This document shows positions 15,000-26,387 of a DNA stretch of 64,000 nucleotides, piece after piece. Both the position numbers and the translations under genes were made by a program. The stretch lies in sequence record PQ471516.1; one strand, written 5' to 3'. This DNA is from Escherichia phage Turkey5. The notes below the pieces were generated by a model. That model was not told where the DNA came from. It did not search any database and saw only the letters and a program-made list of their open reading frames with translations. Numbering within the stretch: the first letter of the stretch is position 1; every line of letters starts with the position of its first letter.

Positions 15000-17900
15000 T
15001 TATGAAGTACGTTGAGCAATAAACAAGTCAATAACGTTACTTACACCATCATATACTGCTTGGTAGATAGTAACACTGTTCGCTGCTAGGTTCTGTTCAC
15101 CATCCACAATAGAGTAAGATGGGTCAGCAGTTAGTACACGGTTACCAGTTGCATCTTGCTTCGCATACATGAAGATAGATGCAGCTTTACCACCACCAAT
15201 CAGGCCAGCAATTGGTGCTAGTGTGGTGTTCTGGTCTAGAGTGATAAAGTACACACTAGTAGAGCCATCAGGAGTCCATGTACCAGCCGGAGCAACAGTA
15301 CTGGAAGTAACTTGTGATGGGATAACATCATACTTCTTAGTAGTTACAGAAGTAGTTACAAAGTTAGCTTCGTCAGTAGTGAATACACCAGCAACTTCAA
15401 TACCTTTTTCGAAAGTAGCTTTCTCAATGAAAGTACTTGTTCCGTTAACTGTGATAACATCTGCTGCTGCATCACCTAGTGTTACGCTACCAGTGGTAGT
15501 TAGTGCACCAGATATATTTACAGCCGCTAGGGTACTTGTACCAGTTACTGCTAGAGTTGAACCGATTGTTGCAGTGCCAGAAGTTGTTAGGTTAGTAACA
15601 GAAGCTTCTGCTAGTGTTGCTTTACCAGTTACACCTAGTGTACCACCTACAGTTGCTGCACCAGTTACGCCTAAAGTAGTTCCAACAGTTACTGCACCAG
15701 TGAAGGTTCCACCAACACCACTTACGTTACCACTGAACTCACCATCAACGCCTTTAACTTTACCAGTACTGGTGATTGCACCAGAACCTAAAGTACCAGT
15801 GATTGTCGCTGCTCCACCAACTGTTAAGTTACCAGTTGATTGCATTGAACCACCTTTAACTAGGTTAGTACTTGTTAGTGATTTAACGTTTACATCAGCA
15901 TTTGATTGGTCAACGTTGGCATATAGAACGCCACCAACTGTAAAGTTACCAGTAGTAACAACGTTACCGTTAACTGTTAAGTTGTTGTTTTGTGATCCAA
16001 CTGCACCAAATGTACCAGAGTTTGCAATAACTGCTGCGTCAGTTGAAATGTTACCAACTGCTGATAGAGTTGCAGAAGCTTCTATTGCATATGGTTCTAG
16101 TGTTTGACCACTTACGTCGATGTCGGCGTTAATACCACCTTCAACGCGTAGTTTACCAGCAATAAACGTATCAGGGAAAATCTGAACAGTTTCAGGTTGA
16201 TCACCAACTTTAACACCAACTACTAGGTTTGCACCAGTTTTAACTGTACCAGTTTCTAGTGAACCAGAAGTTACTTTACCAGTTACTTTTGCATCAGCAG
16301 TTACAGTTAGTGCATCGCCGGATGCAGCAGACAATGCCAAGGATGGAGCAGAAACTGCACCAGTTACACCTAAAGTTCCACCAATAGTTGCGTTACTTGT
16401 TACACCTAGTGTGCCACCGAATGTACCGTTTGTATCACTGTGGATAGTAGAAGAAGTAGATAAACTATTCGCAACGATATCAGATGTTGTTAGGTCTAAA
16501 CCACCAGCAGGAGTAAATGTACCGCTTACTGTTAGGTCATTAGTGAAAGATGAATTACCAGCCATAGTTAAACCAGCAGTACCAACAATACTTGTTGCAG
16601 AAACTGCACCAGTATCTAGTGAACCAGTTGTTGCTTTACCAGTTACACCTAAAGTATTACCTAAAGTAACAGCACCAGTTGTAGATAAAGTACCAGCTAC
16701 GATAGCATTACCTTTAACATCAAGACCAGTACCAGAAGCATTGGACAATGTTAGGGACGGAGCAGAAACCGCACCAGTTACACCTAGTGTACCAGCGATA
16801 GTTGAGTCACCACCAATAGTTGCACCCGCAGTGCTCTTAATTGTGGTTGCCACGTCAAGGCTGTTTGCAGTAATATCAGAAGTAGATAGATCCAAACCAC
16901 CCACTGGAGTGAATACACCGTTAACCGTTACAGCATCAGCAAATGTTGCAGCACCAGTTACACCTAGTGTACTACTAAATGTTCCAGATGTTGCAGAAAC
17001 TGCACCAGTATCCAACGAACCAGTAGTTGCTTTACCTGTTACACCAAGAGTACCACCAACAGTTTGATTTCCGGTAACAGTAAGAGTCCCAGTTTGTGCA
17101 TCAACAGTTGTGATTTTACCTGAACCACTGATATCAGTAGTAGATACGCCACCACTTAGAGTACTCAAGCCAGTTGCTTTTAGGGTTGTTGCAACATCAA
17201 GACTGTTTGCTGTAATGTCTGCACCACTTAGATCCAAACCACCTTCAGGAATAAATTCACCTTTAACAGTTAGTTTTTGAACTACTGAATCACCAGTTAC
17301 GGTTAGAGCAGAAGAAGTTAAACCGCCGTTTAAAGTTGCTGCACCAGTAACACCAAGTGTACCACCGACCGCCGCATTAGAAGTTACTGAAGCGTTTTCT
17401 AGAGTTGCAGTACCGGAGATATTTGCACCTTGTGCAGTGATACTACCAGTATCAACACGTACACCACCAGCTACAACTTGAATACCACCTGTATTAACAG
17501 TTAGTTTATTACCAACAGTTGCTGCACCAGTTAGAGTGCTTGTACCAGCTACAGACAAGTTACCAGAAACGGCTGGGCTACCAGTTACATTACCAGTTGT
17601 TAGAACTAGATCCGCACCAACAGTAGTGTTACCGACAGAAGCTAAAGTGTTTGCAGTTACATCAGAAGCAGATAGGTCAAATGTACCAGCTACTACCAAG
17701 TCACCACCGATATTTGCACCACCAGTAGTAGTGATTGATTTAGCACTAACATCAGTTGTTGCTAGGTCAATTGCACCTGGAGTTACAGTTCCGGTTACAG
17801 TTAAATCACCTGTTACTTTAGTGTTGCTTGCAATTTCCACACCAGTTTCGTTAGAAATGGTTGGAGTTACCAAGGAAACAGCAGTTGCTTGTCCAGATAC

Positions 17901-26387: not shown

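Follow-up and report, generated by a model that had tools for sequence, protein, structure and literature searches.

Tandem giant fibre genes with 170-residue repeat modules in a jumbo coliphage of the Asteriusvirus type

Introduction

Phage fibre genes vary through their repeats, as in the motif swapping of T-even distal fibres and the changing number of collagen-like repeats in the host-specificity proteins of Streptococcus thermophilus phages. Such repeats are substrates for homologous recombination, which gives rise to length variants and mosaics, and tandem paralogous fibre genes provide a multivalent adsorption apparatus. Jumbo coliphages of Asteriusvirus are under study as therapy candidates, and their adsorption apparatus is essentially unannotated. 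Here we analyze two adjacent giant genes, A and B, within a stretch of 64,000 nucleotides (nt) from Escherichia phage Turkey5 (PQ471516.1), referred to below as the window. Both genes belong to a family of long fibre genes of these phages and carry tandem modules of 170 amino acids (aa), or 510 nt. Compared with the repeats of T-even and S. thermophilus phage fibres, this unit is large and proximal, and the natural series, in which a crossover junction can be identified, is unusually clean.

The closest described proteins are the giant fibres of Asteriusvirus and Rak2-like phages, namely 121Q gp571, phAPEC6 gp256, CBB_226 and a GAP32 homologue (PHROG 4549). Mass spectrometry detected phAPEC6 gp256 (180 kDa) and CBB_226 in virions (PMC7247149, PMC5259590). 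The only relative with a solved structure is the long tail fibre (LTF) gp241 of Pectobacterium phage phiTE (9CUY/9MJN chain g, 793 aa), a trimer with a predicted length of 512 Å, in which an N-terminal helical bundle anchors to baseplate wedge 2A and the sheath initiator (PMC11972413). Residues 14-171 alone of the phiTE fibre were solved experimentally, and the parts homologous to A and B lie outside the experimental model.

Genes A and B occupy the same slot as the 121Q gp571 group and begin with the same MYSIKTDL anchor. They are 60-65% identical to 121Q gp571 and share its 170-aa modules, node-punctuated shaft repeats and C-terminal domain. They differ from it in number, as 121Q-type phages have one gene with two modules, whereas two genes with 2 + 3 modules and different tip types are found here. 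The phiTE fibre likewise has a terminal-type module followed by a node (phiTE 194-345), a beta-strand shaft and a C-terminal tip domain, but it is 793 aa long and has a single module.

We consider it fairly probable that A and B encode two fibres, that the two-gene state is old and that repeat number changes by unequal recombination. The products would be two long, probably trimeric, beta-structured virion fibres on a common plan: a jumbo-phage-specific anchor (aa 1-166), 170-aa modules arrayed proximally, a shaft of repeats each opened by a node, and a globular tip of ~100 aa of the phiTE gp241 type. B would be the short form with two modules, and A the same architecture with extra repeat units. 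The sequences were already public but unannotated, and neither the family nor the way it evolves is of a new kind; unequal recombination through repeats, together with conversion between paralogous fibre genes, confirms a known principle and is not a new mechanism. The locus forms a natural series on fibre number and length, with one or two genes, two or three modules, and presence or absence of one shaft unit in a gene that is otherwise 97-98% identical. We found no paper on this one-gene/two-gene and 2/3-module series or on the crossover junction.

Two intact genes in tandem

A sequence-only reading of the window had proposed open reading frames (ORFs) of 2120 and 1628 aa, which is exactly what is present, and B is transcribed before A.

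15000-21362, minus strand: gene A, 2120-aa fibre protein, downstream paralogue; intact ORF, PHROG 4549 tail fiber, E 6e-219
21501-26387, minus strand: gene B, 1628-aa fibre protein, upstream paralogue; intact ORF, PHROG 4549 tail fiber, E 1e-185

Positions 15000-26387 match Escherichia phage vB_EcoM_JNE01 (hereafter JNE01; Asteriusvirus, 355.6 kb) at 97.9% identity over the full length; judged by its sequence, the source phage is an Asteriusvirus jumbo coliphage. The remaining Asteriusviruses match the same interval at ~74%, limited to the 5′ ~2 kb of gene B. In JNE01 both counterparts are annotated as 'hypothetical protein', and the JNE01 paper, a genome announcement, does not discuss them. 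A metagenome contig from ENA is 98.4% identical over 10.15 kb and holds the 3′ 605 codons of B, the intergenic region and the whole of A; its A-like protein (P0002, 2120 aa) differs from A at two residues. The two-gene tandem is seen in three independent assemblies, namely the window, JNE01 and this contig.

Repeat-rich genes misassemble easily, and homologues in vB_Ec-M-J, CMSTMSU and PBECO4 are fragmented in the deposited annotation, so one copy could be redundant or decaying, or the tandem itself an assembly artefact. We hold this to be very improbable and reject it: the ORFs are intact over 4.9 and 6.4 kb, the B-A junction recurs in JNE01 and in the ENA contig, and the ratio of nonsynonymous to synonymous substitution rates (dN/dS) against JNE01 is 0.14 for A and 0.08 for B, indicating purifying selection on both. 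The two proteins also differ by ~38%, and thus are not collapsed or expanded copies from assembly.

The upstream regions of the two genes are as follows.

21363-21500, minus strand: B-A intergenic region, with a terminator-like hairpin (21468-21490), the motif ACTAAATATATA (21407-21418) and the ribosome-binding site (RBS) block AAATGGAGGGAACTA (21364-21378)
26388-26499, minus strand: leader of B, with the upstream gene's terminator-like hairpin at 26465-26492, the motif shared with A at 26439-26450 and the common RBS block at 26389-26403

A terminator-like hairpin stands before each gene, so A and B look like separate transcription units. The leaders have in common the 12-nt AT-rich motif ACTAAATATATA and 15 nt including the RBS, and the rest differs. 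ACTAAATATATA has exactly two sites in the window, both in these leaders, which for a 12-mer found twice is not significant by itself; it may be a promoter.

How A and B compare

A and B are colinear along their entire length. A follows the plan of B with the addition of one 170-aa module, a ~44-aa tract of 11-mers, one 145-aa unit and extra R3 units. The anchors, tips and shaft repeats are located as follows.

20865-21362, minus strand: A N-terminal anchor domain, aa 1-166 (MYSIKTDL...); Rak2-like jumbo phages only
25890-26387, minus strand: B N-terminal anchor domain, aa 1-166; its first 110 aa are 76% identical to those of A
15003-15362, minus strand: A C-terminal tip domain, last ~120 aa, Phage_phiTE_241_C type; profile match to the phiTE LTF C-terminus
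21504-21863, minus strand: B C-terminal tip domain, last ~120 aa; 53% to A (last 190 aa) and 72% to Ecwhy_1 gp207
17598-18740, minus strand: A shaft repeat family R2, units of 145 aa (435 nt), aa 875-1255; ~2.6 units, two full and one partial (direct repeats D5, D7)
16248-17318, minus strand: A shaft repeat family R3, aa 1349-1705; three units of 114-138 aa (342-396-nt repeat; D14, D17)
19064-19179, minus strand: A 33-nt tandem array (11-aa GxFSGNVSGVx), 3.5 copies, found by Tandem Repeats Finder (TRF); offset-11 self-match over aa 709-790

R2, R3 and the 11-aa repeats, which the sequence-only reading missed in A, have weaker counterparts in B. A 12-residue node motif, D-[LV]-S-x-x-D-[LIV]-x-x-x-S-[LIV], occurs nine times in A (aa 674-1634, ~16461-19343) and seven times in B (aa 504-1181, ~22845-24878). 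It opens each shaft repeat and closes the terminal module, is present in the phiTE LTF alignment too, and may be a structural joint of the trimer.

The description of A and B as duplicated paralogues is borne out by their colinearity over the whole length and by the same tandem in JNE01 and the ENA contig. 'Module shuffling' is the wrong term, since the genes are colinear and A is the B architecture plus additional repeat units. The leaders, RBS and N-termini had been called near-identical, which overstates the short leader matches and an aa identity of 76% over the first 110 aa and 71% over aa 1-491. Overall identity is 62%, and the C-termini, described as related, are homologous but only 53% identical over the last 190 aa. 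The two genes are separated by a synonymous divergence (dS) of 0.6-1.1, which marks the duplication as old rather than recent.

Two tracts depart from this level in the synonymous-codon comparison.

A 20328-20507 and B 25353-25532, minus strand: A/B high-identity tract, codons 286-345
A 21138-21272 and B 26163-26297, minus strand: A/B high-identity tract, codons 31-75

Within them nt identity is 90-93%, and 83-86% of identical residues use identical codons, compared with ~45-70% in most other windows of the alignment. On these codon data, the tracts would fit gene conversion between the paralogues.

The two genes have also diverged unequally from JNE01, with a dS of 0.086 for A and 0.025 for B. 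The 3.4-fold higher value of A implies that the adjacent paralogues have different recent histories. Part of A stands out further.

18183-18365, minus strand: hyper-divergent patch in A relative to JNE01, 183 nt; 75% nt identity, dS 0.62 compared with 0.05-0.10 elsewhere in A

An origin of this patch in another repeat unit of the same genome was ruled out by comparison, and no donor above 77% was found among the window and nine related Asteriusvirus loci. As it matches neither, the patch appears to be an imported mosaic segment, and its divergence points to recombination with an unsampled relative.

The 510-nt modules

The 510-bp periodicity proposed for these genes is real, as repeat spacing, self-diagonals and autocorrelation agree. 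Direct-repeat families D2, D3 and D9 are spaced by 510, 510, 4515 and 510 nt, and protein self-diagonals lie at offsets of 170 and 340 in A and 170 in B. In-frame DNA autocorrelation in the module region of A gives 75.7% identity at offset 510 and 64.7% at 1020, and that of B gives 64.3% at 510; on a background of 30% (standard deviation 3%), the module peaks stand 10-13 standard deviations higher. TRF is blind to this repeat, its maximum period being 500. Three tandem in-frame modules in A (aa 167-676) and two in B (aa 167-506), as originally counted, are indeed present.

20355-20864, minus strand: A module 1, aa 167-336, internal type; 84% nt identity to A module 2 and 79% to B module 1
19845-20354, minus strand: A module 2, aa 337-506, the extra module; mostly like module 1, with a patch like module 3 at ~nt 100-160 (informative-site map)
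19335-19844, minus strand: A module 3, aa 507-676, terminal type; ends in the FTGxVTGLTVDVSGQDLTP node and aligns to phiTE LTF 194-345
25380-25889, minus strand: B module 1, aa 167-336, internal type (module comparison)
24870-25379, minus strand: B module 2, aa 337-506, terminal type; 72% nt identity to A module 3

Pairwise nt identity among the modules is 61-84% without gaps, and 61-67% between the two types. Internal-type modules (A1, A2, B1) end in ...LLEVTKGLTKVTDFEVTGxATIPNIES, and terminal-type modules (A3, B2) in ...FTGxVTGLTVDVSGQDLTP. A2 and A3 reach 95% identity locally compared with 67% overall. The copies had been described as mosaic with long identical runs; the mosaic tracts are there, but the identical runs extend over just 14-41 nt. 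Because a permutation test of identical runs ignores site-specific constraint, we rely instead on informative-site maps and synonymous-codon tracts. The proposed pattern of gene conversion agrees with both the raised synonymous identity in the A/B tracts and the patch like module 3 in A module 2.

Homology and predicted structure

In tblastn searches the MYSIKTDL anchor (~166 aa) is found in 58 records at 36-99% identity, all from Rak2-like jumbo phages of ~350 kb, and residues M1-Y2-S3-I4-K5-D7-L8 are invariant in the alignment. Pfam and NCBIfam scans of A and B returned no family at threshold, with a Pfam copy that was scanned without PF26209. This family (Phage_phiTE_241_C) is precomputed on P0002 and 21 other homologues. 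The terminal module and shaft of A align to phiTE LTF 194-519, and its C-terminus to 568-792 (phmmer E 1e-24 to 3e-28); a profile of the family C-termini searched against the PDB recovers 9cuy_g 622-793 at E 1e-23. Fibres of phiTE/CR3-like and rV5-like myophages likewise contain the tip domain and the distal half of the module. The A tip is modelled by AlphaFold2 with a pLDDT of 84-95 over the last 100 residues, and Foldseek matches it to C-termini of phage tail fibres.

Two other relationships were considered and set aside. BLASTP against T4 gp34 and gp37 gave best E values of 0.3 (gp34) and 0.03 (gp37, in a low-complexity stretch of 58 residues), and the GenBank label 'long tail fiber proximal subunit' carried by several homologue records is unsupported by pairwise similarity. 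The likeness to gp34 is architectural only, that of a long repetitive virion fibre with beaded or repeated domains. The bactofilin-like beta-helix PF04519 reached at best 17.2 bits (N-terminal segment) against a cut-off of 27.9, and 27.7 in homologue P0013; this resemblance is one of beta-solenoid repeats only.

Gene and module number in relatives

The same slot varies in both gene and module number. It holds one gene with two modules in 121Q (1841 aa), UE-S1 (1827 aa) and A4 (1845 aa), one gene with three modules in CRJP21 and JP4 (2129 aa), two genes with 2+2 modules in Ecwhy_1 and vB_Ec-M-J (and, by tblastn place counts, in seven more records), and two genes with 2+3 modules in the window and JNE01. 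Across the phage collection, tblastn counts two module copies in ~20 records, three in 2, four in 9 and five in 1; the listed records with a single gene have one N-terminal anchor per genome, and those of Asteriusviruses with two genes have two. A hidden Markov model (HMM) of the modules finds one to three per protein, at the same position directly after the anchor, in 24 of 24 N-terminally complete homologues, and none in two fragments (P0001 and vB_Ec-M-J gp304). Module length across the family is 155-170 aa, and most lineages have exactly two modules. A search with one module as query returned a single fragment, and the full-length query was used for the homologue set. The copy-number variation expected in related phages is therefore found, at one, two or three modules per gene, and the single-gene relatives do not share one repeat count, as they carry two or three modules.

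The clearest step in this series is between 121Q and CRJP21. Wherever the CRJP21 protein aligns with 121Q gp571, each block shows 97-98% identity; what sets it apart are insertions whose lengths are exactly 170 aa (one module), 6 aa and 112 aa (one R3 unit), so that the R3 copy number differs between them as well. Within the CRJP21 middle module, nt 0-~330 follow the terminal module and nt ~330-510 the first one, and there is just one changeover point. This clean chimera is the product expected of unequal crossing-over between out-of-register copies in a two-module gene. The extra module of JP4 is the same head-of-terminal/tail-of-first chimera, and a distant metagenomic lineage (P0006/P0007, ~43% identity to B) also has three modules with such a chimera in the middle. 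P0006 is a single gene of 1861 aa (Logan ERR2738305 contig 4182-9767) with a DUF4376 gene after it and no colanidase gene upstream. Three-module genes in separate lineages mean that expansion has occurred at least three times, and a second repeat family (R3) varies too. We propose that module number is altered when the first module pairs with the terminal one in unequal homologous recombination, which would leave a chimeric middle module behind.

Origin of the two-gene state

The tips fall into types that have no simple correspondence with gene position. The B tip goes with Ecwhy_1 gp207 (72%), the Ecwhy_1 gp208 tip goes with 121Q (91%), and the A tip is a separate type, 62-68% identical to 121Q-type tips; identities are 63% for A-121Q, 64% for B-121Q and 53% for A-B. 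The N-terminal identities among A, B, 121Q and Ecwhy_207 are star-like, at ~73-76%. With star-like N-termini and tip types out of step with gene position, duplication is not separable from allele stacking, in which the pair would be divergent alleles from co-infecting Asteriusviruses (xenologues) rather than in-situ duplicates. We lean only slightly against stacking. Beyond the N-termini and tips, it would account for the foreign patch in A, the 3.4-fold higher dS of A against JNE01 and the duplication of leader motif and RBS along with each gene. However, no donor lineage was identified, and the same outcome could arise from an old duplication followed by divergence and allele replacement.

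In the account that we favour, the two-gene state would therefore go back either to an old tandem duplication or to allele stacking by unequal inter-genome recombination, in a layout as in Ecwhy_1-type phages. Short-tract gene conversion between A and B and the entry of a foreign patch into A would be later steps.

Fibre length, tips and host range

The locus had been presented as a substrate of unequal crossing-over for rapid host-range change. The crossing-over signature is present in the chimeras of CRJP21/JP4 and P0006, but the link to host range would probably be indirect. The modules lie at aa 167-676 by the anchor, more than 1000 residues from the tip, so their copy number should change length or geometry and not specificity. 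We propose that the virion has two types of fibre, similar in their anchors but unequal in length and with different tips; the tips may bind different receptors, thus widening or diversifying recognition, and repeat number may tune length or reach. The diverged paralogous tips (53%) are a more plausible host-range lever than the modules.

The differences in repeat number could instead be neutral by-products of recombination in a spacer-like shaft, with no role in host range or evolvability, a reading that we take to be possible but somewhat doubtful. The modules are indeed proximal and distant from the tip, and exactly two of them are kept in most lineages. Tips and N-termini are identical in 121Q and CRJP21, although these two differ in how many modules and R3 units they have. 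Against neutrality, the three-module expansion is recurrent and independent in three lineages, and expanded genes have stayed intact in pairs of isolates (CRJP21 with JP4, the window with JNE01). In other phages, fibre length matters for reaching receptors through capsule or O-antigen, which also counts against it.

Several points weigh against the favoured account of two virion fibres. Proof of virion incorporation by mass spectrometry concerns the orthologues phAPEC6 gp256 and CBB_226, and A and B would be virion proteins by homology. A profile of the 175-aa N-terminal region does not match the N-terminal 'rip-cord' bundle/globular domain of phiTE (14-171), and its only match, a weak one at E 0.019, is to the repetitive shaft (phiTE 444-575). 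An AlphaFold2 monomer of two modules (B aa 152-530, 17-sequence alignment) had a mean pLDDT of 54.6 and almost no secondary structure and is unusable, so that trimer formation and module fold are inferred. A connection of gene or module number to a host-range phenotype is likewise presumed. Finally, in-situ duplication and allele stacking from two co-infecting phages fit the sequences alike and cannot be told apart from them.

Baseplate fibres or sheath whiskers

Rather than receptor-binding fibres of the baseplate, A and B may be two types of the 'hairy whiskers' that decorate the Asteriusvirus/CBB sheath in three rings, and perhaps the capsid. T4 gp34 measures ~70 nm for 1289 aa. The phiTE LTF gives a similar scale (512 Å for 793 aa; PMC11972413), and at 0.55-0.65 Å per residue a protein of 1500-2100 aa would extend ~85-135 nm. 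Such lengths fit the CBB hairs, which are 119 ± 10 nm long with tiny terminal globules, and not the short fibres of the CBB baseplate (28.6 nm; PMC5259590). phAPEC6 similarly has six short baseplate fibres in addition to whiskers in three sheath rings (PMC7247149), and neither study assigns a gene to the whiskers (PMC7247149, PMC5259590). The anchor is confined to the jumbo-phage group and does not resemble the baseplate-binding N-terminus of phiTE, and a small globular C-terminal domain is predicted.

Several observations stand against the whiskers. The genes lie inside a tail and baseplate cluster beside a colanidase tailspike, and their nearest relative of solved structure, a fibre anchored to the baseplate, folds back along the sheath. 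The CBB authors point out that GAP32, for which whiskers had not been reported, has the homologue (PMC5259590), and the length estimate is a rough extrapolation. Taken together, we regard a whisker identity as unlikely, although the locus does provide a concrete candidate for the whiskers of these virions. Were it so, JNE01-type phages could carry two whisker species of ~105 and ~135 nm with different tips, their length tuned by crossing-over of modules and shaft units, an elaboration for which we likewise see a low probability.

Neighbouring genes and further observations

The gene neighbourhood is a cluster of tail and baseplate genes. Its members include a DUF4376 virion protein, the two fibre genes, a virion protein, a colanidase-like tailspike and a tail protein, and further a gp15-like sheath completion protein, a 3346-aa virion protein, a baseplate wedge and a hub/lysozyme. 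The fibre slot is flanked by a gp572-like virion protein and a gp570-like DUF4376 protein, with the colanidase tailspike nearby, in keeping with the synteny of the 121Q-type locus.

14133-14924, minus strand: conserved downstream gene, 263 aa; weak DUF4376 match, PHROG 17968 virion structural protein

This gene always comes after the last fibre gene, with matching synteny in 121Q, Ecwhy_1, CRJP21, A4 and P0006, and is single copy even where the fibre gene is duplicated. Its product may be a fibre-associated protein or an assembly factor common to both fibres.

The ORF at 38813-48853 (minus strand, 3346 aa) matches PHROG 10938 'virion structural protein' end to end. Judged from size and gene order, it is likely the counterpart of phAPEC6 gp245 (382 kDa, detected by mass spectrometry), and it is a further candidate for an unusual virion structure.

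The colanidase-like tailspike is one 715-aa ORF with a TTG start in the window (27411-29558, minus strand), two overlapping coding sequences in JNE01 (27412-29554 of its locus) and two parts in vB_Ec-M-J (8328-10470 of its locus), and 606 nt of it are left in JP4 (9846-10451). This second receptor-binding or depolymerase gene seems to be variable or often disrupted.

In the CRJP21 record (OQ708376.1, locus 1-28510), the GenBank product names look shifted by several genes. The 2142-nt colanidase homologue is named NUDIX hydrolase, a DprA-like gene 'long tail fiber proximal subunit' and an ATPase homologue thymidylate synthase. The same record has an additional 1368-nt 'structural protein' gene (gp302) after the DUF4376 gene, which sets it apart from the other loci.

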